The notes below the pieces were generated by a model. It searched no databases. It was not told the DNA's origin and was given only the letters and a program-made list of their open reading frames with translations. This document shows positions 26,703 to 53,347 of a stretch of 64,000 nucleotides of DNA, one piece after another. Source of the DNA: a virus; the IMG/VR virus record IMGVR_UViG_3300047369_000529, positions 1-64,000 of that record. One strand, written 5' to 3'. Numbering within the stretch: the first letter of the stretch is position 1; the number at the start of each line of letters is the position of its first letter. Made by a program: the position numbers and the translations under genes.

Positions 26703-27071
26703 ATGAAAACATTTTTTGAATATTTAGACGATAAAAACGTAACACAAGATGAGATCCAAATATTACAGGAATCTTTACAATCTGAATGGACTGATGAGTT
26801 AGAAGAAAAGGTGGATGCGGCTTTAGAAGAGTTCACTAAACAATACGCCAATGAAGACGGAACATTTGATTTTGAAAGATTTAATGAAGAAATTACAAAT
26901 GAAGGTTTCTTGGGTTCTATTTTTGGTGGACTTACTGGTTTTGCTTTAGGTAAAACAATAGGTAAGACGGTTGCTAAAGTGTTAGGAATTCAAAAAGGTA
27001 TATTTTACGATTTATTAACTTCAAGATTAGTTGGTGCTGGATTAGGCGCTGCTATCGGAAAACAATTTTAA
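26703..27071 (+). CDS. putative capsid-targeted precursor of a glycine-zipper membrane-active peptide
   Basis: MKTFFEYL start, acidic first 67 aa ending ITNE, then hydrophobic/cationic GxxxG-rich 55 aa. Confidence 0.5.
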   Translation: MKTFFEYLDDKNVTQDEIQILQESLQSEWTDELEEKVDAALEEFTKQYANEDGTFDFERFNEEITNEGFLGSIFGGLTGFALGKTIGKTVAKVLGIQKGIFYDLLTSRLVGAGLGAAIGKQF

Positions 27072-30822: not shown

Positions 30823-32331
30823 TTGATTTTAACTCTAACGGAAGACAATCAGTTTCTTAGAATAGACGAAGCTGAGGAATTAGAATTAGAGCAGATTAAA
30901 ATATCTTTAACTAAAAGAATTGATAGTTGGAGATTTAATCCTCTAGTTAAAAAAGGAATATGGGACGGATATGTTTCATATATTAAAGACGATAAGTGGA
31001 TTCCTGCTGGTCTTTGGAGATATGTTATGCTCATATGTAAGGAGTATAAGTTTGACCTAAAACTCAATGGAATTCAAAGACTTTTTGATAGAAACATAAA
31101 TGCAGAATCCTTTGAAGAATGGGCTTTAGAATTTTTTAAGGGTAGTAAATTTACGCCAAGAGACTATCAGGTAGAAACATCATTTAACATTCTTAAATTT
31201 AGAAGGTGCTTAGCTGAATTAGCGACTTCAGCCGGAAAAACACTTATTAGTTTTTTAACAGTCGCATACATGTTAGAAAAAGAAAAAGCAGAAAAGATAT
31301 TATTTATAGTTCCTAATGTTTCTTTAGTCGTACAGGCTCACGAAGATTTTCATGAATACAATAATAAGAATAGAATAAAACTAAAAATACAACAGATATA
31401 CGCAGGTCAAAAAATAAAGTCAGATCGAAATGTAGTAATAGGTACATATCAATCTCTAGTTAAAAAATCCAAAGAATACTTTCAACAATTCGATGCAGTT
31501 ATTGTAGATGAAACACACAAAGCAAAGTCCAATTCTATTAAGACGATATTACAAAAATGTACTAACGCAAAATATAAGTATGGTTTATCAGGTACAATTC
31601 CTAAAGATGGATCTTTGGACAAGTTAACGTTAATGAGTCAGACAGGTCCAGTAATCAGCGAAGTAAAAGCAAACTTTTTACAAAGAGAAGGACATATTGC
31701 AAAATGCAAAGTAAAGGTTATTGAAATGGATTATGCTCCTGAAGCAAGCAAAAAGGCATTCGAAGAATTAGCATTTAACAAGTATGATAGAAAAGATGTT
31801 TTTCAATTAGAACAAAACTATATAATTAATTCTTTTGGTAGATTAAACTTTATATGTAGCGTTATAGGAAGAGTTCCTAAGAATTCATTGGTGTTATTTC
31901 ATAGAATTGAACACGGTAAAAAAATATACGAACATCTAAGGCAAAACACTGACAAAAGAGTCTATTATGTAGACGGTGGAACAGATAAAGATATTAGAGA
32001 AGAATATAAAAAGAAAATGGAAGCAGGTGACGAGGTAGTTATCGTCGCGAGTTATGGTACTTTCTCAACGGGTATATCAATTAAGAAAATACATAACATT
32101 TTCTTTACAGAATCTTTTAAGTCCGAGGTAATCATCAGACAGTCTATAGGTAGAGGTCTAAGACAGCATGAATCAAAAGAGGCAGTATTAATAGTTGATT
32201 TTGTAGATGACATTAGAACTGACGAATGGGACAATTATCTATATAAACATAGCAAGGCTAGACAGAAAATATATAAACAAGAGAAATTTGAGTATAGTAT
32301 TAAGAAAGTCAAATTTGAAGGAGATATATAG
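30823..32331 (+). CDS. uvsW: SF2 DNA helicase UvsW
   Basis: WDG, PRDYQ, ATSAGKT, DETH, GLSGT, STGISIK, QSIGRGLR. Confidence 0.93.
   Translation: MILTLTEDNQFLRIDEAEELELEQIKISLTKRIDSWRFNPLVKKGIWDGYVSYIKDDKWIPAGLWRYVMLICKEYKFDLKLNGIQRLFDRNINAESFEEWALEFFKGSKFTPRDYQVETSFNILKFRRCLAELATSAGKTLISFLTVAYMLEKEKAEKILFIVPNVSLVVQAHEDFHEYNNKNRIKLKIQQIYAGQKIKSDRNVVIGTYQSLVKKSKEYFQQFDAVIVDETHKAKSNSIKTILQKCTNAKYKYGLSGTIPKDGSLDKLTLMSQTGPVISEVKANFLQREGHIAKCKVKVIEMDYAPEASKKAFEELAFNKYDRKDVFQLEQNYIINSFGRLNFICSVIGRVPKNSLVLFHRIEHGKKIYEHLRQNTDKRVYYVDGGTDKDIREEYKKKMEAGDEVVIVASYGTFSTGISIKKIHNIFFTESFKSEVIIRQSIGRGLRQHESKEAVLIVDFVDDIRTDEWDNYLYKHSKARQKIYKQEKFEYSIKKVKFEGDI
32322..32330 (+). promoter_or_regulatory. putative late promoter AGATATATA
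   Basis: 33 bp before the first internal-protein gene. Confidence 0.55.
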
Positions 32332-32363: not shown

Positions 32364-33941
32364 ATGGCAGAAATCAATAAAATTTCTTCTTTTAAGTCTT
32401 TTACTGAGATCAGAAAACAAGAGAACGCTAATAAACTTAGAGAAGAAAATAATTTAAAAAGACAAGAGGCTGTTGGTAAAATAGCCACTATATTAGATGA
32501 ACTAGGACTAACTTCTTTTGAAGGTTTAGAAGAAGATCAAAAAGAAACAATCATCTCAAAAATATTTGGAGACGTTTCTGAAGAAGAACTTGCAGAAATT
32601 GAGGTTGAAGTTGAAAAAGAAGTTGAAGAAACGGAAGAGTCGGAAGAGCAAGTTTCAGAAGCCTTAGATATTAGATATAAGAGAGATGCTAAAAAGGTAG
32701 TAACTCAATTTAAAAAGATTTTTGCAGAGTTAGGAAGTCTAACAGCAGATAAAGTAACTTATTTAGGAGCTATTAAATATTTATATAATGAAGCTCTAAC
32801 TGATGCTAACTTTCATTCAGCGAGATCAGCTACTGAAAAAATTATTAAAGGTAGATTAAACAGTATTTCAGTTTCTCCTGAATCTTTAGGAAAACATGCA
32901 ATTATCGTTGGTGCAAAAAACATTATGAAAATTCTAGATGAATATTATTCTAGAATTTCAAATGCAGCGGGATGGTCAGGTCCTGGAATTGCTGAAGGAA
33001 CAGCAATGTATTTAGAATCTATTGGTGAAGGTTCAACCGCTGAAAAATTATTAGTAGGTTTTAATGCAGCTAATGAGAGCGTTGAATACCAATTATCAGA
33101 AGAAGAAATATCATTAAAGGAGTCTAACCTTATTTTTGAAGCAACCGTTACAATGGACGCTATGAATCCTAAAGATAAAGATTTCTTAAAATTCTTAAAG
33201 AAGAATAGCGTTAAAATTATCGATATGGTAAAATCAGGACCAACTGGTCACCCTGAAATTACTATGCAGGGTAAAAGAGAGGATTTAGAAGCGGTATTAG
33301 CAGATGGAGAATTAGGATGGGATGATGCAGGTTTAGCAGACTATATTGAAGAGTCAGCTACAATCGTTCTTAATGAAGGAACTAGAGGCCAATTTGGTAA
33401 AATAGACAGAAAGGGAAATATTACTTCAGTTTATACTCACTACGATTCTTACCCAGAAAATATGTTACCTATTATTAAATCAACATTTAAAAGCGGTAAG
33501 AATGTAGATTTCGTTCTTAAGAATGGAGACAATTCAGGTCTAGATAAAGACATTAAGAAAATTAATTTCTACGGCGGAGATTCTAATTTAATGACAGGTA
33601 ATATTAAGAGCATTAATGATTATATTAAAAACGCAAATTACGAAGCTGGTGCAGAATTCGTTTATTTATGGGATGAAAAATCTAAAAAATGGATGATGGC
33701 AGACATTTATGCAGAAACTGGATTAGTTCCAGCATTTGAATCTGTAGTTAACGAATCAGAAGCTGAAAATATCTTACAAGATCTTTTAGACGAAAGAGGA
33801 GGAGACATGGGAGAATTACATGGCATGGAAATGGAAGATGCTTTAGATACAGTTGAATCTTATGGACATAAAGGTTCTAAAGCAAAAAAGATTGCACAAG
33901 AATTAGTTTCACTATGTAACGAATCCGTGGCTACTAACTAA
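32364..33941 (+). CDS. putative capsid-internal modular polyprotein
   Basis: ISSFKSFTE CTS-like start; modules delimited by VSE, IFE, LNE, ESVVNE. Confidence 0.55.
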   Translation: MAEINKISSFKSFTEIRKQENANKLREENNLKRQEAVGKIATILDELGLTSFEGLEEDQKETIISKIFGDVSEEELAEIEVEVEKEVEETEESEEQVSEALDIRYKRDAKKVVTQFKKIFAELGSLTADKVTYLGAIKYLYNEALTDANFHSARSATEKIIKGRLNSISVSPESLGKHAIIVGAKNIMKILDEYYSRISNAAGWSGPGIAEGTAMYLESIGEGSTAEKLLVGFNAANESVEYQLSEEEISLKESNLIFEATVTMDAMNPKDKDFLKFLKKNSVKIIDMVKSGPTGHPEITMQGKREDLEAVLADGELGWDDAGLADYIEESATIVLNEGTRGQFGKIDRKGNITSVYTHYDSYPENMLPIIKSTFKSGKNVDFVLKNGDNSGLDKDIKKINFYGGDSNLMTGNIKSINDYIKNANYEAGAEFVYLWDEKSKKWMMADIYAETGLVPAFESVVNESEAENILQDLLDERGGDMGELHGMEMEDALDTVESYGHKGSKAKKIAQELVSLCNESVATN

Positions 33942-33953
33942 ACATACAATAAC

Positions 33954-34157
33954 ATGAAAAAATTAATTGAATTTATTAAAAAGGCATTTAATGCAGTTAA
34001 GACCTGGGTTGTTGCAAACGGAGTTGAAGGTGTTTTAGGCCTTATCGCTGGACTTGCCCTATGGGCGTTTGGCTATAAAATCTATGCTGGATTTGCATTT
34101 GGCGTATTTGCAACTCGTAACTGGGACCTATTTAAATCCTGGGTAAAAGGATTATAA
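33954..34157 (+). CDS. small membrane protein (two Gly-rich hydrophobic segments)
   Basis: GVLGLIAGLALWAFG and IYAGFAFGVFA; basic amphipathic N-terminus. Confidence 0.55.
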   Translation: MKKLIEFIKKAFNAVKTWVVANGVEGVLGLIAGLALWAFGYKIYAGFAFGVFATRNWDLFKSWVKGL

Positions 34158-34221
34158 ATTAAAAAAAAAATTGGCTTATAATTTTTCTAGGTCGATTTTT
34201 TTAATTATATTAGTAATATAA

Positions 34222-35595
34222 ATGAAACTAGATAACAACTTCGTAGACTTTATTCAGCATCATGCAGATATGCAAGGTATGACTAGAGAAGAATATGTTG
34301 CTCATTTCTTATCAGAAAGATACGATAATAAAATTTTAACATTTGACGAATTTATCGTTGAGAAGTTTTCTAATCTACAAGAAGCTTTAATCTTAGAAGG
34401 CGGTGCTGCAGGGCATATGTCACATCCATTTGATGAGAAAGATTTAACGTTTGCAGATTTTAAAACAATAGTAAAATCAGGTCTTCAAGGAGAATTAAAC
34501 TTTGAAGAAGTTGCAACAGAAAAAACAGACGGCCAAAATTTATTTGCCACCGTAAGAAACGGAGTTACTCTATTTTCTAGAAATAAAGGCCAATTAATTA
34601 GCCCAGTCGATTTAGACGGGATTATAAAAATGTTTGAAGAGCATGAAGTTCCTTTAGTAAGAGAAACATATGTGTTTGCTGCTAAAGACCTAAATGAAGC
34701 TCTTCCAAAGATGAAGGATCAGTCTATATTTAATGAAGGTAAGAACTTTATTAATATGGAATTAATTTACTCTAAGAATCCTAATGTTATTTATTATGAA
34801 AGAGATGTTTTACAATTCCACGATATTAAGGAAACTGATGGAAATGGAAATATTATTGGAGAGCAAAAAATAGCAGGAGAGCTTGTTTCCGCATTAAAAG
34901 AAGTTGATGCTGATGTTCAAAAAACATTTACAATAATTCCCCCTCAAATATTAAAATTAGGAAAAGATATTGATTTTGAAAAAAATCATGCTAAATTTAT
35001 AAAACAAATTGAAGCACTAAGAGATCGTTATAATCTAACAGATAGTGACGAGGTTTCTAGGTATCATGAAATGTGGTGGAGAGAAACTATCGATGAAAAT
35101 TTCCCTAATCTACAACAAGACTATAAAGAAGGTTTATTATTAAGATGGGCCTATGGAGATAAGAAAACTCTTAACATGAGAAGTCTTGCAAAGGAAATAG
35201 GAAAAGATGAAGCAGCGGCGGTTAAGAAATTCGACAAAGAAGATGTTAAAAAGAAATATAAAGAAAACATTAGACCTTTCGAAGATTTATTTTTAGAATT
35301 AGGGTCTATAATTCTTAAAAATGCGTCCAATTTTGTAGCAGCTAATCCTGACAAAGAAATGCAAAGATTGCATAATCAGATTAGAACAGAGGCTGATAAA
35401 ATTAAGAAAGGCGGAAGCGTTGCTCAGATCGAAAAGGTAATGAAAGAATTAGAGAGATTAGATAGAATTGGTGGAGTAGAATCTATTATACCAACCGAAG
35501 GGATAGTTTTCGTATATAAAGGAAAAACTATGAAATTAACGGGTACATTTGCCGCTATTAATCAATTAATGGGCGTTATAAAGTACGGAAGATAA
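34222..35595 (+). CDS. ATP-grasp ligase-like (covalent nucleotidyltransferase superfamily) protein
   Basis: Motif I TEKTDGQN, motif III-like NMEL, motif IV EGIVF, motif V-like MKLTG; N-terminal GGAAGHM.HP after ILE. Confidence 0.6.
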   Translation: MKLDNNFVDFIQHHADMQGMTREEYVAHFLSERYDNKILTFDEFIVEKFSNLQEALILEGGAAGHMSHPFDEKDLTFADFKTIVKSGLQGELNFEEVATEKTDGQNLFATVRNGVTLFSRNKGQLISPVDLDGIIKMFEEHEVPLVRETYVFAAKDLNEALPKMKDQSIFNEGKNFINMELIYSKNPNVIYYERDVLQFHDIKETDGNGNIIGEQKIAGELVSALKEVDADVQKTFTIIPPQILKLGKDIDFEKNHAKFIKQIEALRDRYNLTDSDEVSRYHEMWWRETIDENFPNLQQDYKEGLLLRWAYGDKKTLNMRSLAKEIGKDEAAAVKKFDKEDVKKKYKENIRPFEDLFLELGSIILKNASNFVAANPDKEMQRLHNQIRTEADKIKKGGSVAQIEKVMKELERLDRIGGVESIIPTEGIVFVYKGKTMKLTGTFAAINQLMGVIKYGR

Positions 35596-35605
35596 ATAAT
35601 AAGAT

Positions 35606-37480
35606 ATGGCACTTAAAAAAATAAGACAAGTATTTCAAGAAACTAACATTAATGCATTTCAGGATCTTCTGAAAAATAGAATTTTAGTTACTGAAAAAAT
35701 ACAAGGTTCATCTTTTCACGTAAGAAGAAACGTAGAAAGGTTTGAATATTTTAAATCTGGAGATATTCGTATGAATATGATAGATAGAACTATCGTAGGA
35801 CTATACGAAACAGGGGTTAAACATATTCAAAGTTTAGATCCTTCAATTAAAGAAGAAATGCCAACGGATTGGAAATTTGGATTTGAATATCTTCCTGAAT
35901 TAGAAATATCACAATACAAATATACTAAACTTCCTAAGAATAATTTAATATTAACACATATACAAACGTTATCTGAGTCAGGTAAAGTTAAAAAAACTAT
36001 TTATGACCCTTCTGTTTTAAACAAATGGGCAAAAAAATTAGAAGTTCAAGGACCTAGCATAGTATTTGATGGAACTTTAAATCAAAATCAAAAAACAGAA
36101 TTAATAAATCTTTTATCTATGTCAGATAAAGAATTTGTAGAGTCGTTTGACTATGATAGATCTACGGATTTTAAAACTTCATTTACACAGAAAATAATAA
36201 AGATTTTTAATCCAAATCAAACTTCACCAATATTGAATGAAGATTTTGAGGTTGAGATTGATGGTCTAATAATTTCATTTATAGACGGAAAGAAAGTAAA
36301 ATCTTTTAAATTAGAAGACTTTACTAGAAACAACGAGAGCAACTCTAAGGAATCTAGTCACATGTATCAGATTACTATAGCTGATCTAATCGAATATCTT
36401 TCTTCATTTGACATGAACTCTGTTCAACTAAACGAAGAAACAGCAGATCTTAGGTACATTGAATTAATGTCCGTTATATTTAATAAATATGTAAATGAAA
36501 ATTCTACTAAATTTATAGGAGTTAACTTTGAATCAGCCGACTTTGCAAGCCATAGCGTATTTAAACTAAATAGTAAATACATTAAAAACGAAACCACACT
36601 TTCTTTAGTGGAAAACGAAATACTTTCAGAATTATTTAAAATAACGCTCGGATCTTTTAGAAAAAAGAGAAATAAAGAAAGCGATATTCTAAATAAAGAA
36701 ATGATAGAGCATTTAAATAATATAGTAGAAGAAATAGATAAAAAGATATTCGTTGAAAACACCGACGAAAATTCAATATATGACTTTAACAATTTTATAT
36801 TACATAACAAAGTAAAGACTAGTGTTAATTTAAATGAAGCGCTTAAGGTAGATCATCCTGAACAAGGAGGAGAATTAGTAAATATGTTTGTTGGTAGATT
36901 CCAACCATTTACACTTGGACATGCTAAAGTATTAGAAACTATACACAAAGAAAATGGATATCCTGTTGTAGTATTATTAGTCAAAGCAAAGAATAAGAAA
37001 AAAGAAGACGCTTTTAAAAGACCTTATGATGAAAAAACGCAACTTAAGATGTTTAAGGCGGTTCAAAAACAATATCCATTCCTAAAAGAAATTTTTGTAA
37101 TTCCAACAGGAGGTATTGATACTATGTTCAATGCAATGAGACCTAAATATGAACCTGTATTATGGGGAACAGGAAGTGATAGAATGAAAACTTACGGATT
37201 CCAAGTAAATAAAGATTCTTATAGAGAAGATCTTGGAGTTAGAAGCGACTTTAGATTATTTGAAATTCCAAGAACAGATGATAATATTTCAGCGACTCAG
37301 GTTAGAAACGCAATGCTAGACGGAGATGAAGGATTATTTAAGTCAACAACACCCAAAGCATTACATAAAATGTATGGCGAACTTAAGAAAAAATTAGAAG
37401 ATTCAGTAGGTACTTCAGAATCAAATGAAGTTGCTGAATCATTATTAACATTTAAACAATTTTTAGAAAACAATGGATAG
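35606..37480 (+). CDS. fusion: degenerate ligase-like domain plus HIGH-family cytidylyl/adenylyltransferase
   Basis: N-term TEKIQGSSF, DGLII, FKL; C-term VGRFQPFTLGH, GSDR, ISATQVR; domains separated by LNEA. Confidence 0.65.
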   Translation: MALKKIRQVFQETNINAFQDLLKNRILVTEKIQGSSFHVRRNVERFEYFKSGDIRMNMIDRTIVGLYETGVKHIQSLDPSIKEEMPTDWKFGFEYLPELEISQYKYTKLPKNNLILTHIQTLSESGKVKKTIYDPSVLNKWAKKLEVQGPSIVFDGTLNQNQKTELINLLSMSDKEFVESFDYDRSTDFKTSFTQKIIKIFNPNQTSPILNEDFEVEIDGLIISFIDGKKVKSFKLEDFTRNNESNSKESSHMYQITIADLIEYLSSFDMNSVQLNEETADLRYIELMSVIFNKYVNENSTKFIGVNFESADFASHSVFKLNSKYIKNETTLSLVENEILSELFKITLGSFRKKRNKESDILNKEMIEHLNNIVEEIDKKIFVENTDENSIYDFNNFILHNKVKTSVNLNEALKVDHPEQGGELVNMFVGRFQPFTLGHAKVLETIHKENGYPVVVLLVKAKNKKKEDAFKRPYDEKTQLKMFKAVQKQYPFLKEIFVIPTGGIDTMFNAMRPKYEPVLWGTGSDRMKTYGFQVNKDSYREDLGVRSDFRLFEIPRTDDNISATQVRNAMLDGDEGLFKSTTPKALHKMYGELKKKLEDSVGTSESNEVAESLLTFKQFLENNG

Positions 37481-38552
37481 GTACGATTTTGAAAGAGCAC
37501 TACATAGTGCTGCAAAAACCAATGCTGAAAATGAAGCGTTAATTATAGAATCCTATATTGGAGTTGCAACGACCGGAAGTAAATCTGCCCAACAGAATTT
37601 ATTTAATTCAATTAATAGAACATTTAAAAAGAATAAGTGTCCATGGCAAGGTGTTAAGTTTACTTCAACACAGGATGTTAAACAACAACCTGATGGTAGG
37701 TTATGGCTTTCTAAAATGGATGACGATACATTCGGAGTAGTTTTTCAATATTTAATGTTAAATAAAAGCGAAGCAAACGAATTGTTTAATATTGGAAGAG
37801 ACGATAATGGAATTGGTGCTGGAGAAATAATGCTAGCGTATATTGTAGAAAATATAAAAATAGGTGGAGGTGCGGCCGATACTGACTTAGAATTATATAA
37901 TGAAAGGTGGTCACCAATTAAACCACCCCTTGGTAAATGTGAGTTAAAAGAAGCTCAAATGTCAAAGGGCATGTTACAAAATTGGAGAACAGGTGCAAAA
38001 CACCAGGGAATTAATAGTACTTATGTACCGAAGTTAACGGCATTATATGACGCAGTAAAATATAATATTGAAGAAATCAACCCGGACGGAGATGGTAAAG
38101 ATATGGCTGCCGGTGGAGGTTGGATAAATGAATGGGGAACTGTAGGTGGAAAAAGATTTAAGCATATTCAAAATTTAACTAAGACAGATATTCAGGCCCT
38201 TTCTTCTAGTGAAAGAGATTTTAAAATAGGTCCTGGAGATAAAGATAACGGCGCATTAGTAATTAAATTTAATGACGTAGAATTAGGAAAGCTAAGTGAC
38301 TCTAAAACTGCAGAAAAAATTAAAAGTATAATAGAGACTGAGCCTTCCGTTAGAACATTTACTGAAATACAAGACGATGTAATTTCAGCAGTAGGAGATA
38401 TACCTACTCCATTCCTTTTTATAGAGTCTAAAGATCATGAAATAGTAGCTTTTCACTATTACAAGAAATTACCTGGAAAAACTAGCGAATTACAAATATA
38501 TTCTATTACACAAGGTAAATTTAAATATAAAATAAAGCCTAACCGAGTTTAA
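37473..38552 (+). CDS. hypothetical protein, possible PD-(D/E)XK nuclease fold
   Basis: GIGAGE...DTDL...CELK arrangement. Confidence 0.4.
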   Translation: MDRYDFERALHSAAKTNAENEALIIESYIGVATTGSKSAQQNLFNSINRTFKKNKCPWQGVKFTSTQDVKQQPDGRLWLSKMDDDTFGVVFQYLMLNKSEANELFNIGRDDNGIGAGEIMLAYIVENIKIGGGAADTDLELYNERWSPIKPPLGKCELKEAQMSKGMLQNWRTGAKHQGINSTYVPKLTALYDAVKYNIEEINPDGDGKDMAAGGGWINEWGTVGGKRFKHIQNLTKTDIQALSSSERDFKIGPGDKDNGALVIKFNDVELGKLSDSKTAEKIKSIIETEPSVRTFTEIQDDVISAVGDIPTPFLFIESKDHEIVAFHYYKKLPGKTSELQIYSITQGKFKYKIKPNRV

Positions 38553-38572
38553 ATAAACAAATACAAATAAAA

Positions 38573-41200
38573 ATGAGCACTAAAAAAACATTTGAAAGCT
38601 TTGTAAATTCAATGAATGAAAACGTTGATTTATATAAAGTATATAAAAGAGTTTCTGGAAAATACTCTTTAAGAAAACCTTCTTATTGGGGAGATCTATT
38701 TAATCAAAGAGCTTCTATCCCGTTAAAAGAATTAAGTAAATATTCTTCTGAATTAGATTCATTAGAAGTCTATACTACTAAAGAATTAGGATGTCATCCA
38801 GATTATCCTATGCAATCAAATTTTAAGGTTCAAGTTCCTCAAGTATTCGTACTATATTGTAATACTGAAAGGGGCGAATTAGGAGAGTATTATGGAATGT
38901 CAATTCTTGTAAATACTGAAGGTGCAACATATCCAAGATATGCATGTGGTATGCCAGATTTCGAACCAGAACTTCATAACTTTGCAAATGGAATTCCTGA
39001 AAGCTATTTAAATATTGTAACAACAGGTGCTCAAATGTTACATGAAAAAATGATAGCTGAAGGTCAATTCTCATGGATGACACAAGATACTGGAGATCAG
39101 ATTGGTTCAGAACCTCAAAATAAAATAGACGTTTACATGTACGACAACCAGGGTAATTCTTGGAAAGAAAGAGACTATGAAGGCTATGGAGAATTTGGCG
39201 GTATGGATTACTATGACTTAGTTGCAACTATGAACGGATATACTGAAGAAGACGTTAAAACAATGAAAGGTTCATTTAAAGAATTAAGACAACTTGGTAT
39301 CGATTTAGCGTTTGGTAAAATAAAAACTAAAGATAAAAAGCGCAAAACTCTTTTTCCAGCTTTAGTCACAGATCCTAGGTATAATTGGAAAAGACATGAT
39401 TTTACTCAAGAAGCAGAATCAGATCCAAACCAATCATGGTATCAAGAGCCTGAGTATGACGATTATGAAGATGAATATGATGATTTCTACAATGAAAAAG
39501 AAATCAAGGGTAAAGCTGCCGGCAACTCTATAAAGATGGCACCAGCAGGTAGAACTATTGAAATCAATGGTATCACTTACACATGCCTTGGTAAAGGTAA
39601 GTGGGAAGGACCTGATGGCGAAAAAGTAAATTGGATTGAAGTTTCTGCTATGGCATCAGCATTAGGAAACAAGAAAGTTGTATATGAATATGATGGCTAT
39701 GAGTCAGTAGTTACTGAAGCTAAAGGAGATTTAAAAGTAGGAGATAAGGGTATAGATTATAATGATAATGTTGTAAAAATAATTGCTATTGGTAATTTTA
39801 AGAAAATTGCTAAAATGTTTAAGAAAGAAATGAAAGCAGACGCAGCTGATTGGGGCTACGAAGAAGGAGCTGGAGATTTCTATCTTGCTAAAAACATAGA
39901 AGCGACTGAAGGTAATGTTGGAGATTTAGCAATTTATCCAGTAAAATACGACATGGCTAACTACTGGGGTTTAGATAAACTAGATGAATCATCAGTTACT
40001 GAAAACTATGAAGTTATTTATAGCGACGGCGTAAGTGCTATGAAAAAGTTTAGAAGCGAGAAACAAGCACTAGACTTTATGAAGAAAACTATCTCTTCTA
40101 ATAAAAAACTAAGAGATATTGCAGTTTACAAACCAGGAATGTATTCAACTACTCAAACTGAACTAGTTGTTAAATTCTGGGGAGATGGTTCTTATTTAGA
40201 TAACGTTTCTAAAAAAGATAAAGATTTAGCTTCTAAAAAACTAGAAGAATCTACCTTAAATGAAGCTCGTTCTATTAACAAGATTTCAAAGGAGTTTGGA
40301 GAAACGGTTAATAAAATGAAAGATATAGTTAAAGTATATGTTGCTGCTGAAGAAGGAAGTGATGAAAAATCAAAATTAAGACAACAATTAATTGATTTAA
40401 CAGCAAAGAAAAAGTCTTTAACTAAAGAATTAGACGACGCCGTAGCTGGAAAAAACAAAGATGTAAAATTAGTTATAACAGAAGGTGTAATGTCAAATAT
40501 TCATTTGATGGCATCCGATTCTAAAAACTGGGATGATTTCTTAAAAAAGTTTAAGAAAGATTATAAGAAAGTATTTCAAAATACACCTGACTTTATGGAT
40601 TGGTTATATGGCATGTATAAGGATATGGCTCCTTTAAAAGCAGGCGAAAAAGTAGAAGAAAAATATAACAAGAAAAAGTTATTAAAAGCAATTAAGAATA
40701 AAGACGACATGTTTATTCAGTTAGGAGATGGTACTGAACTAATAGTTTATAACCCGGATTCTAATAATGACGACAATGCAGAAATGTGGCACGATGATGT
40801 GGTATTTGCGATCGATCAAGACGGAGAAGAACATGAGGTTAAATACTCAGATATTGCAGGTATTGGTGAATCTGTAGTTTCTGAATCTAAAATTCAAATA
40901 AAAAGAAAGTATACAGACAAGCATCCAGCAAAAACAGCTGGAAGATCTGCAAGGGTTAGAAACGCAATGATAGAAGCTCTTTCGGATGGAATATTAACAG
41001 AAGAAGAATTCAATAATATTTTAAAAGAAAAATCTATTGACAGTAAAAGATGGATGAGAAGAAATTCTAGATTTTTTATGGTAAGTGAAGAAGGAATCAA
41101 GCTTTCTAAATATGGAAAAAGAATTTTTAAAGAAATTACGAATAAGCAAGTAGTTAACTTAACTCTAGAATCTTTTATAAAGGATATATACAATAAATAA
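38573..41200 (+). CDS. putative capsid-internal modular polyprotein
   Basis: KTFESFVNSMNE start; linkers IAE, ESVVTE, ESSVTE, ESTLNE, VITE, ESVVSE. Confidence 0.6.
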   Translation: MSTKKTFESFVNSMNENVDLYKVYKRVSGKYSLRKPSYWGDLFNQRASIPLKELSKYSSELDSLEVYTTKELGCHPDYPMQSNFKVQVPQVFVLYCNTERGELGEYYGMSILVNTEGATYPRYACGMPDFEPELHNFANGIPESYLNIVTTGAQMLHEKMIAEGQFSWMTQDTGDQIGSEPQNKIDVYMYDNQGNSWKERDYEGYGEFGGMDYYDLVATMNGYTEEDVKTMKGSFKELRQLGIDLAFGKIKTKDKKRKTLFPALVTDPRYNWKRHDFTQEAESDPNQSWYQEPEYDDYEDEYDDFYNEKEIKGKAAGNSIKMAPAGRTIEINGITYTCLGKGKWEGPDGEKVNWIEVSAMASALGNKKVVYEYDGYESVVTEAKGDLKVGDKGIDYNDNVVKIIAIGNFKKIAKMFKKEMKADAADWGYEEGAGDFYLAKNIEATEGNVGDLAIYPVKYDMANYWGLDKLDESSVTENYEVIYSDGVSAMKKFRSEKQALDFMKKTISSNKKLRDIAVYKPGMYSTTQTELVVKFWGDGSYLDNVSKKDKDLASKKLEESTLNEARSINKISKEFGETVNKMKDIVKVYVAAEEGSDEKSKLRQQLIDLTAKKKSLTKELDDAVAGKNKDVKLVITEGVMSNIHLMASDSKNWDDFLKKFKKDYKKVFQNTPDFMDWLYGMYKDMAPLKAGEKVEEKYNKKKLLKAIKNKDDMFIQLGDGTELIVYNPDSNNDDNAEMWHDDVVFAIDQDGEEHEVKYSDIAGIGESVVSESKIQIKRKYTDKHPAKTAGRSARVRNAMIEALSDGILTEEEFNNILKEKSIDSKRWMRRNSRFFMVSEEGIKLSKYGKRIFKEITNKQVVNLTLESFIKDIYNK
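41182..41190 (+). promoter_or_regulatory. putative late promoter GGATATATA
   Basis: 22 bp before 41213. Confidence 0.5.
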
Positions 41201-41212
41201 AAACTATAGAAA

Positions 41213-43042
41213 ATGAAACTATATACTAACTTCGATAATTTTATCAATGAAGCAAAGGTTATGAAGCAGAAAGATACTGCTAAAATAGCACAAAAATTAG
41301 CATCGGCTCTTTCAAAGGCAGATGGCAAAGAATTTACAATTTCTAAAGATTCATTAGATGCTGGAGGATGGGATCTAGATATGGATGGAGAAGAATTCGC
41401 AGGTGGAACTTATTTTATTGGAGATGCTGGAGAAATAGTAAACGCAGCAACAAGTAATGACGTATATGGTCACATGGACGACAGTGAAGCTGAATTAGTT
41501 AAAAAGATTAAAAAGGGTAAATTTGCAAAATACAGAGCAACTGAATCAGTAGTTAACGAAGCATCTCTTTCGGGTGTAGAATTTGGAAACGATGACGACA
41601 TTCACCCAACTAAATTTAAACCTTTAACTACATCTTTAAAGAAGAATAAAGTTAAAATGGAAGTTGAAAAAGAAGAAGGTTACCATGGCTACCCAGAAGT
41701 TAAATTAACGGGTAAAAGAAAGGACATCGAAAAGGTTTTAGCTGATGTATGGGGACCAGACTCAATCTCTGACTATGAAGATTATTTTGAATCCAAAGTT
41801 AATGAAGCTAGATTTAAAAAAGGACAATACATTAAAGCCACTGCCGATAGCGATGATTTTGATGGAGATGTTTACGATGTAACTAACGACGTAGATGGTA
41901 GTACGATTTACAAAGATTCATCATTCGAAATTTATGGAATTAATAGAAATGAAGTTATTCTTTGGAGTGACGAGGATGAAGTAGAATACTCAATAGATCC
42001 GGATGATCTTAAACATTTTGTTAAAGAATCATTAGATATTGAACTTAATGAAGCTCTTAAGTCTTCTAAACTAAGAAACTTAATAGACATAAGACAGGGT
42101 GGTAAGCAACTAATGCAGGGTATATATGGTCTTGCTAAAGTAGCATTAGATAAAGTAACCGACGACATGGTTATCACTAATTCAAATCCAGTTGAAGTTT
42201 ATAAGAAAGCAAAAACATACGGAAATGTATTAGTATTTTGGATTTCTAGAAACGAAAAGGAAAATCCTTACACACCTAGAAATAGTTATGGTGGAAAAGA
42301 TATTATTCCAGGAAATACCTTATTAGCAGTCTCAAATGGTAAAAACGAAATGTTTGACAATCATGCTGCATATACTAGAGAGTATGTGGATGGAAAACAA
42401 AGAAGTAAAACTACAAGATCTTTAAAGAATAGAGGAAGATACCCTGGTTCTAAAGACACTGTTGGGGTAGATAAATCTCATAGTACATGGAGTGGAACAG
42501 GCTTAGGAAATATTAAAAGAATCGCAGAGGTTTCAGACGAATGTTACATTATTAATTTAGACGCTGTTAGAGATAGACTTTCTACAAGTAATAAAGTATC
42601 GCAAAGATTTTCTCAAAAAGCCGATGCTACCGCTTTTGATAATCCAAAAGATATTAAACAAGCAAACATCACTAAATATCAATCAATTTTAGCACAAAGA
42701 GCAGATAATCCAGATAAAATAGACAAACAAGTTAAAGAAATTATTGAAGATGCTCATCAATTCTTAATGGCCGGTTTAGCTAAAAAAGAAATGGGAGACT
42801 ATAATGAATTATCAATAGGAAAAGATCCTAAAGGAAGAGATATTAAACCTAGAGATTTAACCAATTATATTTCAAATATATTGTCAGATTATCAAGGATA
42901 TGTTTCGGCATACGTTAATGCAAAAACTGAAGAAGAAAAATATGGAACTTCAAGCGATTGGTATAAAAGAGATGCTAAACGTAAAGCTCTAGAGCTTAAG
43001 CAGCGAATGGCTAAATGGGATAACAAGAACATAGTTTGGTAA
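41213..43042 (+). CDS. putative capsid-internal modular polyprotein
   Basis: MKLYTNFDNFINEA start; linkers ESVVNE, ESKVNE, ELNE. Confidence 0.6.
   Translation: MKLYTNFDNFINEAKVMKQKDTAKIAQKLASALSKADGKEFTISKDSLDAGGWDLDMDGEEFAGGTYFIGDAGEIVNAATSNDVYGHMDDSEAELVKKIKKGKFAKYRATESVVNEASLSGVEFGNDDDIHPTKFKPLTTSLKKNKVKMEVEKEEGYHGYPEVKLTGKRKDIEKVLADVWGPDSISDYEDYFESKVNEARFKKGQYIKATADSDDFDGDVYDVTNDVDGSTIYKDSSFEIYGINRNEVILWSDEDEVEYSIDPDDLKHFVKESLDIELNEALKSSKLRNLIDIRQGGKQLMQGIYGLAKVALDKVTDDMVITNSNPVEVYKKAKTYGNVLVFWISRNEKENPYTPRNSYGGKDIIPGNTLLAVSNGKNEMFDNHAAYTREYVDGKQRSKTTRSLKNRGRYPGSKDTVGVDKSHSTWSGTGLGNIKRIAEVSDECYIINLDAVRDRLSTSNKVSQRFSQKADATAFDNPKDIKQANITKYQSILAQRADNPDKIDKQVKEIIEDAHQFLMAGLAKKEMGDYNELSIGKDPKGRDIKPRDLTNYISNILSDYQGYVSAYVNAKTEEEKYGTSSDWYKRDAKRKALELKQRMAKWDNKNIVW
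41542..41562 (+). repeat. 21-bp exact direct repeat copy 1 (linker ESVVNEA)
   Basis: TGAATCAGTAGTTAACGAAGC, identical to 45340-45360. Confidence 0.85.
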
Positions 43043-43059
43043 AATAAGACTTAAAAATT

Positions 43060-43782
43060 ATGAATAATAAAATAGAAGAAAAATTTAAGTGGGAAACTAC
43101 TGGCGACAAGGATGATAGAGAGTTCTTAACAGGTTTAGTTCAAAGAACTAAATTAATTTACGGAGATATTAAACCTGCTAAATACGATCTTAACGACTTT
43201 GATAAAGACTTAGATAAATTATTAAAGAAATTTGTAAAAGATTCTGATTCTTTTTTTAAGGCAAAGGACGATAGAGACTATGGAGCTAGTAATAAAATAC
43301 ATGCAGATTGGATGAAAGCTGCTCAAAAAGCATTTAAACATGTTACTACAAATACTGCATGGAGAGGTCAATTAAATACATTCACTAGAAATTTATCAAC
43401 TATTTGGCAAGTTCACATGGAAGCAGAGGCTGGAAGAACAGGAAACAGAGGCTATAAAGTTCATAAGAGACAAGCCTTTCAAAAACAGTTTGAACAAGTA
43501 AAATTGTATGAACAGTTTATTAACGAAAGATTTAACGCTAGAAAAGTAAAGAAAGAACTAGAAGGTTTTGGCTTTAAGAACGTTGATGCTAGTGGAAACG
43601 AAATTTCAGTTGAAACGGGCTCTTATGAAAATCCATTTGGTTCAGAACAGAGTTACACTTTCTTTTGGAATGGTGAAACAGTCTGGTGTGAATCAGAAGA
43701 AGCTGAAACAGAATGGATGGGAGAAGTAACTACTGCAGAACAATTTGCAGAAACTATGGAAACAGCAGAAGGCTGGTCATAA
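43060..43782 (+). CDS. putative capsid-internal protein (two modules)
   Basis: Internal QVKLYEQFINE identical to the N-terminus of the next ORF. Confidence 0.55.
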   Translation: MNNKIEEKFKWETTGDKDDREFLTGLVQRTKLIYGDIKPAKYDLNDFDKDLDKLLKKFVKDSDSFFKAKDDRDYGASNKIHADWMKAAQKAFKHVTTNTAWRGQLNTFTRNLSTIWQVHMEAEAGRTGNRGYKVHKRQAFQKQFEQVKLYEQFINERFNARKVKKELEGFGFKNVDASGNEISVETGSYENPFGSEQSYTFFWNGETVWCESEEAETEWMGEVTTAEQFAETMETAEGWS

Positions 43783-43798
43783 TTAAAAAACAAGAACT

Positions 43799-44116
43799 AT
43801 GAAACAAGTAAAACTATATGAGCAATTTATAAATGAATCAGCAATTGATACTTTAGCTACTGAAATTGATGATGCTAAAGTTTATGATGCTGTTTCGGAT
43901 GGAGGTTCTGTTGACGCAAGATCTACTAAAAAAACATGGGACGATGGTGTTCCAGTTTTAAAGTATATTGCTAGAGCTCCAAAAAAATCTGTTAAATTAC
44001 CTAAGAAATTTAAAGTAGTAGACGACACTAAATATGGATGGTGGTATTTACAAGTATCAGGAGTATGGTATGGAATCGAACAAGATGATTATGGAACTCC
44101 ACCATTTGAATATTAA
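43799..44116 (+). CDS. small internal head protein-like (T4 IP-style CTS)
   Basis: MKQVKLYEQFINE resembles the T4 IP capsid-targeting sequence MKTYQEFIAE. Confidence 0.6.
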   Translation: MKQVKLYEQFINESAIDTLATEIDDAKVYDAVSDGGSVDARSTKKTWDDGVPVLKYIARAPKKSVKLPKKFKVVDDTKYGWWYLQVSGVWYGIEQDDYGTPPFEY

Positions 44117-44119
44117 GAT

Positions 44120-46126
44120 ATGGAATTAAACGAAAACGAAAACTTATCACTTGGCGATATGGCCGGAATGGGAGAAGTCTCTTTACCATCTGAAACATCA
44201 GTTGGATCAGGGGATATTCCAGCCGGAAAAGGAGATGCCGAAGAAGAGTATAAGAAGAAGAGAAATAAAAAGAAACAACGCGAAATGAAAAACATTATAT
44301 CATTTGAATCTTTCGGATCACTTGATGAAGGTAAAACAATATCTTCTTCTAAAATATCTATGATGGGTGCAAGAGTTCTTAATAAAATTAGCATCGGTAC
44401 CATATTTGATACAGAAGATGGAAACTATGAAATTACGGATTATGGCCGACAGGCAAATGCATTTAAAGAATTTGAAGCAGAACATAATGGTAAAAAAGTA
44501 AAGGTAAAATTAACTGCAATGTATGGTGTTAAGTTAGAAGTAACTGACGATGTACGCAGCGCTAGATTTAATAAAGAAGTAAAGCTAAATTCTATTATTT
44601 TAGAATCGGTTAATGAAGGTAAGTTTGACGGTATTGCAGATTTAGTAAAATCTTTACATTTCGAAATGGATCCTAAAACCGCAGAAGAAAAGAAAATCGA
44701 ACTAGGTAAAAGACAAGGTGAAGTTTCAAGAAGAAAGCAAATTGAAGGTGGTGAATATTCACTAAGAAGATTTAGAAAAGAGATTAAATACGATGAGACC
44801 GGAGAAGATCTTGGTGTATTTAAACCCGGTAGCTATATGGCTGCTACTTCTATATTAGGCGATGGTCCACATAAGAAAGCCGTTAAGAAAGTAAGATGGA
44901 ATAGAAAGAAATACGATCAATGGATTGAAGATATGGCAGCTAACGATGGTTGGAAGAATGCATTCGATATGGCACAAAATGCTAAACACGAACCAGGTCT
45001 ATTACAATGGGCTAAGAAAGAATTTAGAGGTGAAGACGTAATGCAAAGAATTCAATGGGATATTGAAGGTTACGCAGAATCAGTAGTTACTGAATCTATT
45101 AGTAAATCTACTAAAATACATTGTATCGCAACACCAGCTCCTAAGTCAATGCTTAAGGATGAGTTAGAAGAATTATTCGGAGATGATTATAGAAATATAG
45201 TTACAGAAGTTCAAGACGATGAAGGTTATGAATCAGTGTTAGTATTTAATCTTACTAAAAGAGACATTAAATTAATAGAAGATAATATTGGAGATGTATT
45301 AATCTGGGAATATTCAATTAAACCAGGTAAATTAATTAATGAATCAGTAGTTAACGAAGCTGAAAAGTATATCACTGATAAATTTAAAGTAGGTGATAAA
45401 ATTAAAACTAATTTTGGTGAATGGGAAGTAATTGAAACTGATTATGCACCTAAAAAGAGTTTTATAGCACCTTTTATATTTAAAGGAAAGAATATAGAAA
45501 GAGTAAACATACCTAATCCACCTAAAACTAACAAGAATGCGGTAGGTTACAAAGTAACAGACGGTGCTAAATATCCAACTATTGGTTTCTTATATCAATA
45601 TAAAGATATTACTAAACTTGCAACAGTTGGCGTTGATGAATCAATAGTTACTGAAGCTGAAAGTGTAAAGGTAGGAGAATATATTAAAACTCAATACGGT
45701 TATTTCTATAAAAGAGTCGACGGTAAAGTTGGAGGACAAGAAGCTTTCGTTGAAATAAAGAAAGGAAAAGAAGGAAAGAGAAAAACAAGTATTCATGATA
45801 CAGTTAGCTTTGAAATAGTTGATAAAGATGCTGCATTCGAATCATTGGTTACCGAAAAGAAACACGATAGAGAAGATACTATAAAATTCATAAAGAAATA
45901 CATGAGATTCGTAAAAACCACTGAAGAATTTAATGGTTCTCAGGGTGGTATATGGGTTTCAGGTGAAGATGGAGATGAATATAAAGGAGTAACAATCTAT
46001 GATTACTATACGTCTGGTAAATCATATGAATTAGGTGTAAATATAAAGTGGGAAAAAGAGTTAAATGAAAGAGGATGGTACAGCGAATGGTATGATGCAG
46101 GAACTGTAATGATCTGGGAAATATAA
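44120..46126 (+). CDS. putative capsid-internal modular polyprotein
   Basis: Internal MKNIISFESF (ATG 44285); linkers ESVNE, ESVVTE, ESVVNE, ESIVTE, ESLVTE. Confidence 0.6.
   Translation: MELNENENLSLGDMAGMGEVSLPSETSVGSGDIPAGKGDAEEEYKKKRNKKKQREMKNIISFESFGSLDEGKTISSSKISMMGARVLNKISIGTIFDTEDGNYEITDYGRQANAFKEFEAEHNGKKVKVKLTAMYGVKLEVTDDVRSARFNKEVKLNSIILESVNEGKFDGIADLVKSLHFEMDPKTAEEKKIELGKRQGEVSRRKQIEGGEYSLRRFRKEIKYDETGEDLGVFKPGSYMAATSILGDGPHKKAVKKVRWNRKKYDQWIEDMAANDGWKNAFDMAQNAKHEPGLLQWAKKEFRGEDVMQRIQWDIEGYAESVVTESISKSTKIHCIATPAPKSMLKDELEELFGDDYRNIVTEVQDDEGYESVLVFNLTKRDIKLIEDNIGDVLIWEYSIKPGKLINESVVNEAEKYITDKFKVGDKIKTNFGEWEVIETDYAPKKSFIAPFIFKGKNIERVNIPNPPKTNKNAVGYKVTDGAKYPTIGFLYQYKDITKLATVGVDESIVTEAESVKVGEYIKTQYGYFYKRVDGKVGGQEAFVEIKKGKEGKRKTSIHDTVSFEIVDKDAAFESLVTEKKHDREDTIKFIKKYMRFVKTTEEFNGSQGGIWVSGEDGDEYKGVTIYDYYTSGKSYELGVNIKWEKELNERGWYSEWYDAGTVMIWEI
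45340..45360 (+). repeat. 21-bp exact direct repeat copy 2 (linker ESVVNEA)
   Basis: TGAATCAGTAGTTAACGAAGC, identical to 41542-41562. Confidence 0.85.
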
Positions 46127-46143: not shown

Positions 46144-46170
46144 AAACAATTTTAGAATGCTTTGTATAAC
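46144..46170 (+). promoter_or_regulatory. putative pre-replicative promoter AAAC-N16-GTATAAC
   Basis: Upstream of mgsA. Confidence 0.6.
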
Positions 46171-46187
46171 TACAAAGCATTTTTTAT
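46156..46187 (+). terminator. intrinsic terminator-like hairpin closing the internal-protein cluster
   Basis: AATGCTTTGTA-TAAC-TACAAAGCATT perfect 11-bp inverted repeat followed by T run. Confidence 0.7.
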
Positions 46188-51482: not shown

Positions 51483-51950
51483 ATGGCAAACATAGACAAC
51501 GAATGCAAAGACTTAGAAGTTAAAGACTTCTATGCAGAATCTACCACCCACCTGGCAGATATTATGGAAAACCAAAAGAAAATGCAAGAGCAGACTTACG
51601 GTTTTAATTTTGAAAACATGACACTTAGGGAAGTTATGAATTTTTGGCACTGTAACACGCATGCAGTTATTGATGAAATTCATGAAATGACAGATGCCTT
51701 AGGAGGTATTAAAGACGGCAGCGGAAATGCTATCTGGAAATATTGGAAAAAAGATTTTACAAAATTTGATAATCTTAAAGTTTCAGATCTTTCTGAAAAT
51801 GATAAGAAAGAACTATATATGGAATGGGTAGATATTCTACACTTCTTTATTAATTATGCGGCATCAATTGGCCTCGATGCTAAAACAGCATACAACTATT
51901 ATTTCGCAAAAGCAGAAGAAAATGTTCAACGTCAAAAAAGAGGCTATTAA
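51483..51950 (+). CDS. dCTP/dUTP pyrophosphatase, T4 gp56-like
   Basis: NEC..L, DE..E....LG, A.WK.WK, E.VDI.HF, YY..K...N..RQ..GY all match gp56. Confidence 0.88.
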   Translation: MANIDNECKDLEVKDFYAESTTHLADIMENQKKMQEQTYGFNFENMTLREVMNFWHCNTHAVIDEIHEMTDALGGIKDGSGNAIWKYWKKDFTKFDNLKVSDLSENDKKELYMEWVDILHFFINYAASIGLDAKTAYNYYFAKAEENVQRQKRGY

Positions 51951-53347
51951 TGATATTAGACATTGAACAAAGAGACAAGGATGTAATTATATCATATTAC
52001 GACACCGAGGGTAAAGTAGCTTTTAAACAATATCCAGTTCAGCAATATCAAAATTGGTATGTATGTGACGGTAAAGATAGAGGTAGAAGTTTAGACCATA
52101 AAAACTGGGACGGAAGATCAGTGAAGCTTGGTAACGCAAGAAGATACAATAAATTTTCTTTAACTTATTTCCTAGACTCTTTACCTGAAAAAGATAAAGA
52201 AGAAATTTTTGCATATAATATGCCTAAAACATATTTTGTCGATATTGAGACAGAAATTGTTGATGGTTTTCCAAAAGCAGAAGAAGCAAAAAGTAGAATT
52301 CTATCTTTTTCTATTATCACACCTGATCATAAAGCAATTGTTCTTGGATTAGAAGATATGTCTTCTTCTAATATTCAAAAGATTGAAGAAGATACTAATA
52401 ACTATTTTAAGAACTTTGATCAAGATTGGGAATTTAGGTATCATAAGTTTGAAACTGAATATGATATGGTCTACACCTTCTTAATGAAATTTCTACCTAA
52501 GTTTCCAATGATGACAGGCTGGAACTTTATTAACTATGACTGGCAATATATTGTAAACAGATGTAAAAGACTTCAAATAGATGTTGCAGAAGTTTCTATG
52601 ACTCAATCTTTAGATAGAAATGATAGTAGGCCTTTACATATTGGAATCTTAGATTACATGCAACTTTATGATAAGTATGATAGATCTGTAAAGGTAAAGG
52701 AATCTAATGCACTTGATTATGTAGCAGGACAAGTTCTAAATGTAAATAAGATTAAGTTTACAGGTTCACTCCAAGACCTTTACAGAGATGATTTTACTAA
52801 ATACATTTATTATAATGTAGTTGACTCGGTTCTTGTATATTATATCGATCAACAATTAAAGTCAATGGAAGTTCTATTAACTCTTGCAAACATTACAAAA
52901 ATGCCTCTCTATAAAGCTGCATCTCCGGTTGCTGTAACAGAATCATTGATTGCAAGAAAACTTTCAGAAGAAGGTAAAAGAATTGGCTCAGAATCTAAAG
53001 AAGATGGAGAAAAGAATGGACAATACGCTGGGGCTTTTGTAAAAGAACCCATCACAGGGTATTATGAAGGTGTAAGTGCATTTGACTTTGCTTCTCTATA
53101 TCCTTCTATTATGAGACAATTTAATATTTCACCAGATTCCTTTATAGAAAAAATAGATTCTAGTGAGATAAAAGAAAGAAGAAATGACAAAGAAGTTATT
53201 GTATGTGAGAACGGAGTTGTATACAAGCAAGAAACTTCAATGTTAAAAAAAATATTAGCAGATCTATATGATCAGCGTAAAGCATATAAGAATACCTCTT
53301 ATGAGTATTTTACAAAAGCTGATAAACTTAGAAAAAGATTAAGTTAA
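51950..53347 (+). CDS. family B DNA polymerase, N-terminal half (3'-5' exonuclease plus motif A)
   Basis: ExoI DIET, ExoII GWNFINYD, ExoIII YNVVD, YAGAFVKEP, motif A DFASLYPSI; stops in the first fingers helix. Confidence 0.9.
   Translation: MILDIEQRDKDVIISYYDTEGKVAFKQYPVQQYQNWYVCDGKDRGRSLDHKNWDGRSVKLGNARRYNKFSLTYFLDSLPEKDKEEIFAYNMPKTYFVDIETEIVDGFPKAEEAKSRILSFSIITPDHKAIVLGLEDMSSSNIQKIEEDTNNYFKNFDQDWEFRYHKFETEYDMVYTFLMKFLPKFPMMTGWNFINYDWQYIVNRCKRLQIDVAEVSMTQSLDRNDSRPLHIGILDYMQLYDKYDRSVKVKESNALDYVAGQVLNVNKIKFTGSLQDLYRDDFTKYIYYNVVDSVLVYYIDQQLKSMEVLLTLANITKMPLYKAASPVAVTESLIARKLSEEGKRIGSESKEDGEKNGQYAGAFVKEPITGYYEGVSAFDFASLYPSIMRQFNISPDSFIEKIDSSEIKERRNDKEVIVCENGVVYKQETSMLKKILADLYDQRKAYKNTSYEYFTKADKLRKRLS

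Follow-up and report, generated by a model that had tools for sequence, protein, structure and literature searches.

An uncultured phage contig of the IMG/VR database (record IMGVR_UViG_3300047369_000529; 79,082 bp, its first 64 kb being hereafter the window) carries, between positions 32364 and 46126, a block of genes whose longest products are strings of small, interchangeable protein modules connected by a recurrent six-residue joint, E-S-V-V-[N/T]-E. This block probably represents an expanded internal-protein locus, encoding head cargo that would be loaded by T4-type leader sequences, cut at the joints by the phage head protease and delivered in pieces; the system is most likely the T4 internal-protein cargo in polyprotein form. 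The genomic data revealed a motif restricted to the block, a head-protease gene in the same contig, shuffling of modules among related phages, a [VILM]-x-E rule at module borders, interchange of leaders and joints, turnover of cassettes at the joints and a promoter-like motif shared with virion genes. From them we infer loading into the head, cutting, retention, injection and any role that the pieces may have in the host; loading and cutting are more likely than delivery and effector function.

In a six-frame scan of the window, the pattern ES.V[NTS]E occurred exactly ten times, always on the + strand, in coding frames and within 32364-46126, and it was absent from the remaining 20,724 amino acids (aa) of the 79-kb contig. 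The number of copies expected from composition was 0.025 and 2,000 shuffles gave at most one. All ten linkers listed by an earlier sequence-only reading of the window were thus found in place and in frame, and the enrichment check proposed with them gave ten copies in the block versus none in the rest of the contig. One copy lies in a polyprotein of 525 aa (ESVVNE, 33738-33755), three in one of 875 aa (ESVVTE, 39701-39718; ESSVTE, 39986-40003; ESVVSE, 40868-40885), two in one of 609 aa (ESVVNE, 41543-41560; ESKVNE, 41789-41806) and four in one of 668 aa. Among the latter, ESVVTE (45077-45094) and ESIVTE (45638-45655) are the two ends of a strain-level cassette deletion described below, ESVVNE (45341-45358) forms a double site with the LINE just before it, and ESLVTE (45839-45856) is the last. 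The full joint logo reads h-x-E-S-V-V-[T/N]-E (h, hydrophobic), followed by A, K, G or S and then by K. A looser site, [VIL][NTS]E[AS], was six-fold denser in the block than in the rest of the contig, and the matches to [VIL][NTS]E[ASG] outside the block, listed per gene, clustered in head proteins: five in a protease-scaffold protein, one at the N-terminus of the capsid protein and two in the gene that follows.

Cutting the block proteins at the joints defined modules that we compared with 54 related viral loci and 240 metagenomic proteins. Each of two long queries matched more than 700 proteins, all unannotated, and several hundred metagenomic proteins contained the modules, differently ordered and within other carrier proteins, the matches in relatives spanning the modules from first to last residue. 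For example, the module at the end of the 875-aa protein comes first, straight after the leader, in four related loci (L047, L049, L051 and L053), and another module of this protein, 383-477, was found within the homologue of the 525-aa protein in another (L045). Module 167-325 of the 668-aa protein belongs to a family with 154 representatives at 50% identity, positioned anywhere from residue 14 to residue 1361 in proteins of 100-1531 aa. Within the phage's own block, the modules, most of them of 7-18 kDa, are mutually unrelated except for two weak pairs, in agreement with their initial description as strings of unrelated domains. The four long open reading frames (ORFs) contain four to six modules each and thus depart from a layout of one leader and a single small protein. 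The sequence-only reading had proposed perhaps 25 or more products, which is plausible inasmuch as the cuts would give ~30 pieces, but that figure counted motifs and not products. We rejected the possibility that the long ORFs are several small genes: their frames are open throughout and the first residue of each module is A, S, G, K or N, so that, without a Met of their own, the modules could not be synthesised separately.

The borders of these modules follow a simple rule. We retained only alignments starting at residue 1 of a module and read the preceding residues of the subject without requiring any motif. The residue before the module start was Glu in 168 of 187 distinct contexts, a further 18 being offset by one residue, and [VILM]-x-Glu preceded the module in 162 of the 187, where the background is 2.2% per residue. 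The third residue before the border (P3) was V in 86 contexts, I in 40, L in 28 and M in 9, counts in which the S/A/G-x-E motif of phiKZ-type phages is not recognisable. The borders fit the cutting rule of the T4 head protease gp21, with Val as the commonest P3 residue. This rule persisted where the rest of the joint differs (KPLNE, LVITE, GGMIKE, GLME), and such conservation of Glu and of a hydrophobic P3 across differing joints argues for selection on the peptide and not on a DNA repeat alone. A pure DNA repeat as the sole cause of the motif was accordingly rejected, P3 and the last residue before the border (P1) being kept in joints of different DNA.

A protease presumed to have a fitting rule is encoded outside the window (contig 72634-74673; 9634-11673 of locus L005). 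This 679-aa protein combines a gp21-family protease domain (Peptidase_S77) with a scaffold-like region. The protease matched PF03420 at 40.2 bits (cut-off 27) and phrog_207 (E 3.9e-40), and aligned to the structure of T4 gp21 (5JBL, chain 5JBL_A) with His and Ser in the motifs GELDHP and SSR. The crystallised chain of 5JBL has Ala at both positions, and these His and Ser are the presumed catalytic residues. The protein itself contains joint-type sites (arrows mark the predicted cuts), RVNE↓S straight after the protease domain and ETVNE↓A near the C-terminus, and the N-terminus of the capsid protein shows G-I-[NT]-E↓[ASK] and L-[YN]-E, conserved in four genomes (this phage and three related ones); by comparison with T4, such sites seem to fall where head proteins are processed. 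In T4, gp21 and the scaffold protein gp22 are separate proteins. The scaffold-like region here contains five leader-like repeats, Y-x-x-Y-[LV]-[AK]-E, together with an acidic stretch and joint-type sites, and the likeness of these repeats to the leader hints at what the leader may bind or mimic. A complex prediction with residues 205-365 of this protein and a 105-aa leader protein of the block gave a score of 0.00, which, obtained without controls, is uninformative either way.

The T4 leader has been functionally mapped, with residues 4 and 7 acting in targeting and residues 8 and 10 in processing by gp21, which cuts after L/I-X-E (PMC9026906; for the cutting rule, also PMC5694885); the T4 targeting sequence is MKTYQEFIAE (10.1101/2021.01.19.427310). 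Two leaders of the block, YTNFDNFINE (gene at 41213) and KLYEQFINE (43799), and dozens in relatives fit the Y-x-x-F-I-x-E of the T4 leader, with aromatics in the places of T4 residues 4 and 7, a hydrophobic residue in that of residue 8 and Glu in that of residue 10, and the other block proteins carry looser or internal versions. The sequence-only reading had noticed targeting-like motifs in most ORFs of the block, and it had placed them correctly: at residues 7-15 of the product of 32364, residues 39-48 of 34222, the C-terminus of 35606, the N-termini of 38573, 41213 and 43799, internally in 43060 and at residues 59-65 of 44120. Several of them are, however, looser than the T4 pattern, and the strict form [FY]xx[FY][ILVT]xE, when counted at any position in a protein, is hardly more frequent in the block than elsewhere (1.1 versus 0.72 per 1000 aa). 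The leader signal is its position at N-termini and module joints, not its overall count.

Leaders and joints are interchangeable in front of the modules. The same module can be found behind an ESVVNE joint in one phage and behind an N-terminal leader in another, and leaders preceding modules elsewhere include MNFNTFINE↓GKF, MKKFDEFIGE↓GKI, MKHVREYTDFLNE↓AKF, MDIKKTFNDFVNE and MATFKDFLNE. A search for short proteins retrieved stand-alone leader-plus-module proteins of ~100-230 aa (e.g. P0342, P0349, P0263, P0309 and P0295) with the T4-like leader MK..LFEQF[VI]NE, and members of the 167-325 family at 33-50% identity still open with MKHLKLFEQFVSE, MKYLKLFENFINE or MKNVKTYSEFINE. The joint E-S-V-V-N-E may correspond to the end of a leader, E-Q-F-V-N-E, deprived of its aromatics. 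Leader-like N-termini exist outside the block as well: MKTFFEYL (window 26703-27071), MRHKILKYDDYLVE↓A on a protein whose AAA/D5-like match is weak (contig 64884-66239) and MKTFEQWYKAFTE↓S on the gene after the capsid gene (contig 76319-77695), so the cargo set is probably larger than the block. In many related polyproteins (P0009, P0022, P0043, P0061 and others), a DUF3008 domain (PF11450) stands at the start in place of the leader and may offer another means of head targeting or anchoring; DUF5661 is present in a few.

Comparison with a near-identical strain (L041), in which the shared parts are 97-100% identical, showed that two block proteins differ in length. Its homologue of the 668-aa protein has 380 aa, the deletion running from inside ESVVTE to inside ESIVTE and leaving AESV-VIEAES. 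Its homologue of the 609-aa protein has 448 aa and lacks residues 111-271, which comprise the greater part of the joint that follows module 14-116, the whole of module 117-198 and almost all of module 199-280, both ends of the deletion being at the Glu-Ser that opens a joint. Cassette gains or losses between near-identical strains are hence in frame and end in joints. At the codon level, the P3 Val of the joints is encoded by GTT in 10 of 10 cases, versus 47% genome-wide, and the P4 Val by GTA in 6 of 6. This uniformity goes beyond what the peptide needs, which suggests that the joint is also a DNA-level recombination site.

Structure models agreed with the modular organisation where they could be judged. 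AlphaFold2 modelled the whole 668-aa protein with a mean predicted local distance difference test (pLDDT) score of 46; of its two confident units, 256-322 stops at a joint and 581-668 starts at one. In a model of the 875-aa protein from residue 383 to residue 875 (mean pLDDT 60), all four joints overlap segments of pLDDT <50 located between confident units. No judged joint fell inside a confident domain, a location that had been named at the outset as one that would contradict the polyprotein interpretation. Module 565-637 of the 875-aa protein was modelled as a helical hairpin. Fold searches were uninformative for the 668-aa model (best match Z 5.1) and returned only generic helical-hairpin matches to residues 181-246 for the 383-875 model. 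A viral fold library gave no match at E <= 0.001 and, for module 281-609 of the 609-aa protein, the ESM Atlas no usable match. When the block was scanned with Pfam, PHROGs and NCBIfam, only a cytidylyltransferase/NMNAT-like domain, phrog_1987 and two sub-threshold matches were recovered. The same scans detected in the block proteins neither the signature domains of polyvalent proteins nor a metallopeptidase, remote homology being possible.

The block also shares an expression signal with virion genes. The motif GATATATA, resembling a late promoter, is found on the + strand 41 nt upstream of the first block gene (32323-32330; gene at 32364) and again inside the end of the 875-aa ORF (41183-41190), 30 nt before the gene at 41213. 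Late-type motifs had already been proposed at these two places, and the general form RATATATA is strongly strand-biased, with 20 copies on the + strand of the contig versus 2 on the - strand. It lies 30-42 nt ahead of the portal gene, the gene after the portal, the protease-scaffold gene and tail-fibre genes (window examples are at 11806, 19984, 26672, 32323 and 41183). RATATATA is probably the late promoter of this lineage, comparable, we assume, to the T4 late promoter TATAAATA. A strong terminator-like hairpin on the + strand (46154-46183), with a 13-bp stem and then a T run, closes the block, as previously suggested.

The sequence of events that these features suggest is as follows. The block would probably be transcribed together with the head and tail genes, since the genes at 32364 and 41213 share their promoter-like motif. 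A short amphipathic T4-type leader (aromatic-x-x-aromatic-[ILV]-x-Glu) would then bring the proteins into the scaffolding core of the prohead, where the gp21-family protease would recognise [VIL]-x-E and cut behind its Glu, both where the leader ends and at each E-S-V-V-[N/T]-E joint. Some 25-30 small proteins, mostly of 7-18 kDa, would be freed, remain with the DNA and accompany it into the cell. The joint resembles the processing half of the leader (E-x-h-h-N-E) minus the targeting aromatics and, being short, in frame and partly conserved as DNA, it could serve as a recombination joint at which modules are gained, lost and moved between polyproteins. We tentatively extend this to a more general proposal, somewhat short of being probable, in which the processing half of the leader has become a universal in-frame connector in a plug-in payload system by which many undescribed marine T4-related phages would deliver proteins from the virion; any joint-flanked module could be moved into any polyprotein, loaded by its single leader and freed by the head protease.

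The genes of the block are all on the + strand. The first (32364-33941) encodes the 525-aa polyprotein, with an FKSFTE leader and modules 1-99, 100-338, 339-464 (matching phrog_1987) and 465-525; in relatives the modules are reordered and a module of another polyprotein is inserted (L045, L049). Its ORF stops inside a degenerate joint (NESVATN, then the stop codon; window 33915-33941) where relatives read NESVVNE and continue with modules, which looks like a recent truncation at a joint. A basic, very hydrophobic 67-aa protein, potentially membrane-active, is encoded between this polyprotein and the enzyme genes (window 33954-34157), and its homologues (~62 aa) adjoin module-bearing ORFs even in distant relatives (L039, L057-L059).

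Two adjacent conserved proteins (34222-37480), with KxDG-like and degenerate KxxG motifs and both with leader-type motifs, follow. The 457-aa enzyme-like protein (34222-35595) has a KTDG motif and, behind an extra leader of 35 aa, the targeting-like LTFDEFIVE; its homologue in divergent relatives opens directly with the leader (MKIYTNFSTFITE, MKILSFKDFLIE), and in other relatives this type of enzyme is placed after a NINE joint. From motifs only, it and the protein encoded next may be ligase-like. The 624-aa protein (35606-37480) has an NMNAT/cytidylyltransferase-like domain (PF01467, E 4.5e-9; phrog_3041; TIGR00125 above cut-off; 2qjo, E 0.0011) after an LNE↓A joint (residues 409-411), and relatives keep both an [IL]-x-E↓[AG] joint before that domain and the C-terminal LTFxxF motif. 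Sequence searches of solved structures with both proteins retrieved no match for the ligase-like parts. The two products could be a packaged pair of RNA-repair or NAD-related enzymes. The conserved 359-aa protein encoded next (37473-38552) is collinear in relatives and has no clear leader or linker, so that its part in the system is uncertain.

The 875-aa polyprotein (38573-41200) comprises modules 1-382, 383-477, 478-564, 565-637, 638-771 and 772-875, and the 609-aa one (41213-43042) has the T4-like leader MKLYTNFDNFINE and modules 14-116, 117-198, 199-280 and 281-609. In the 240-aa protein (43060-43782), an N-terminal region is fused in frame to a leader-plus-module unit with an internal VKLYEQFINE, and its C-terminal part is a stand-alone, leader-led gene of 98 aa in three relatives (L030, L034 and L036). 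This in-frame fusion of a stand-alone leader gene shows how chains can arise. The 105-aa protein (43799-44116) consists of the leader MKQVKLYEQFINE and one module of 92 aa and, alone in the block, has the exact layout of a T4 internal protein. The last gene (44120-46126) encodes the 668-aa polyprotein, with modules 1-166, 167-325, 326-408, 414-512, 513-579 and 580-668.

The phage is a T4-related giant, uncultured and marine, with a genome of ~280 kb as deduced from the completeness of the contig estimated by CheckV (28%). All genes of the window are on the + strand and its G+C content is ~31%. PHROG and Pfam scans identified T4-type baseplate and tail-fibre genes, replication genes (gp32-, primase-, UvsW-, UvsX- and gp41-like) and, outside the window, a T4-type (gp20-type) portal (contig 70142-71737) and a Gp23-type major capsid protein (contig 74826-76196). 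A B-family DNA polymerase is split in two genes ~4 kb apart (window 51950-53347 and 57256-58452), with ribonucleotide reductase genes between the two halves. A tRNA scan of the window found none. The closest deposited relatives are uncultured huge phages (LR756500.1, with a capsid protein 51% identical), and more distant ones include Lak phages, Tenacibaculum phage PTm1 and Sphingomonas phage PAU. Neither megablast of 38573-46126 nor tblastn of the 668-aa and 609-aa proteins retrieved any match among 50,697 phage records.

Several observations weigh against an interpretation as polyprotein cargo. The phage is uncultured and no deposited phage genome, among the records searched, has a homologue of the system; with only ~28% of the genome in hand, another protease is possible. 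The canonical N-terminal leader is missing from several block proteins (44120, 37473 and 35606), the P3 residue of the joint is mostly Val whereas the T4 rule has Leu/Ile, and the partial conservation of the joint as DNA, with its invariant GTT codon, could reflect spread by recombination and not selection for cutting. In addition, the AlphaFold2 model of the 668-aa protein is poor, so only some joints could be judged, and no module matched known effector or anti-defence families in Pfam, PHROGs or NCBIfam. The structural part of the original polyprotein interpretation stands: the tags, the independent modules, a gp21-family protease, the [VILM]-x-E borders, the interchange of leaders and joints, the breaks in the AlphaFold2 models and the promoter-like motif shared by two block genes with virion genes all point to it. 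Packaging, cutting, injection and action against host defences are its predicted parts.

Other explanations have to be weighed against these data. The proteins might be packed and cut but yield structural pieces, a core-, scaffold- or inner-body-like filler that sizes the head or organises the DNA and is later cleared or stays inert, as could be expected from the fusion of the protease to a region with five leader-like repeats, from the many multiply cleaved inner-head proteins of the giant phages phiKZ and SPN3US (PMC5694885, PMC9026906) and from the lack of a recognisable effector fold in any module. We regard this as unlikely, because module content varies between strains that are otherwise 97-100% identical and modules shuffle freely, as predicted by an arms race and not by a structural core, and because enzyme-like members (the NMNAT-like domain and the KxDG protein) carry leader-type motifs. 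It seems less likely still that the long proteins work uncut as multidomain proteins, their joint being a flexible spacer and recombination joint maintained by descent or gene conversion. The over-uniform Val codons and the cassette deletions ending inside joints are what such a history would leave, but P1 Glu and the hydrophobic P3 persist where the DNA of the joint differs, the joint is interchangeable with the end of the N-terminal leader, a proven gp21 site in T4, and the same type of site is conserved in the N-terminal region of the capsid protein and after the protease domain. Finally, the joints might be cut in the cytoplasm by another phage or host protease, as a viral strategy of polyprotein expression without packaging. 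The incompleteness of the genome leaves room for such an enzyme; yet the leader agrees with the T4 head-targeting sequence at the residues whose function has been mapped, the block shares its promoter-like motif with virion genes and a protease presumed to have a fitting rule is encoded beside the capsid gene, which makes this last explanation very improbable.

The T4 internal proteins, the textbook case of anti-defence proteins injected together with DNA, are single small proteins, each with its own tag. Like T4 IPI, IPII, IPIII and Alt, the cargo encoded in the block would rely on a leader of 10-13 residues (aromatic-x-x-aromatic-[ILV]-x-Glu), cut presumably after hydrophobic-x-Glu, and on a gp21-family protease encoded in the same genome as a gp23-type capsid protein; its mature units would be small and its repertoire, as in T4 internal proteins, is hypervariable between related phages. 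In contrast with T4, many units are encoded in a single ORF, which spans 525-875 aa here and reaches ~1,500 aa in relatives, and are connected by the six-residue joint, so that many unrelated modules would share one leader for loading. Val predominates at P3, and there is no sequence similarity to T4 internal proteins. Polyvalent proteins (Iyer et al. 2017, PMC5512222) are also long and made of many unrelated domains, as found here, and have been proposed to travel with the DNA and to be split by proteolysis, leaving each domain free to reach a target of its own. They are, however, recognised by a characteristic set of identifiable domains, and their processing has been attributed to an embedded metallopeptidase, whereas in the block proteins the head-maturation protease would act in trans, at a short joint that is repeated. 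In the giant myophages phiKZ, 201phi2-1 and SPN3US, a gp21-related protease cuts many head-internal proteins after Glu at several sites (PMC5694885, PMC9026906). However, the motif of those phages is S/A/G-x-E, propeptides of >100 residues are lost and the proteins are not strings of interchangeable modules; the literature that we searched reports no conserved inter-module joint for them, nor does it describe chains of interchangeable modules linked by a conserved head-protease site in any system.

If our interpretation is correct, a phage would be able to pack dozens of changeable small proteins with a single tag. The leader and the joint would together provide a sequence rule for finding virion cargo in uncultured phages, and the hundreds of compact, independently folding modules would be candidate factors of early host takeover or counter-defence. 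The turnover of cassettes between near-identical strains offers, in addition, a tractable case of modular protein evolution at defined joints.

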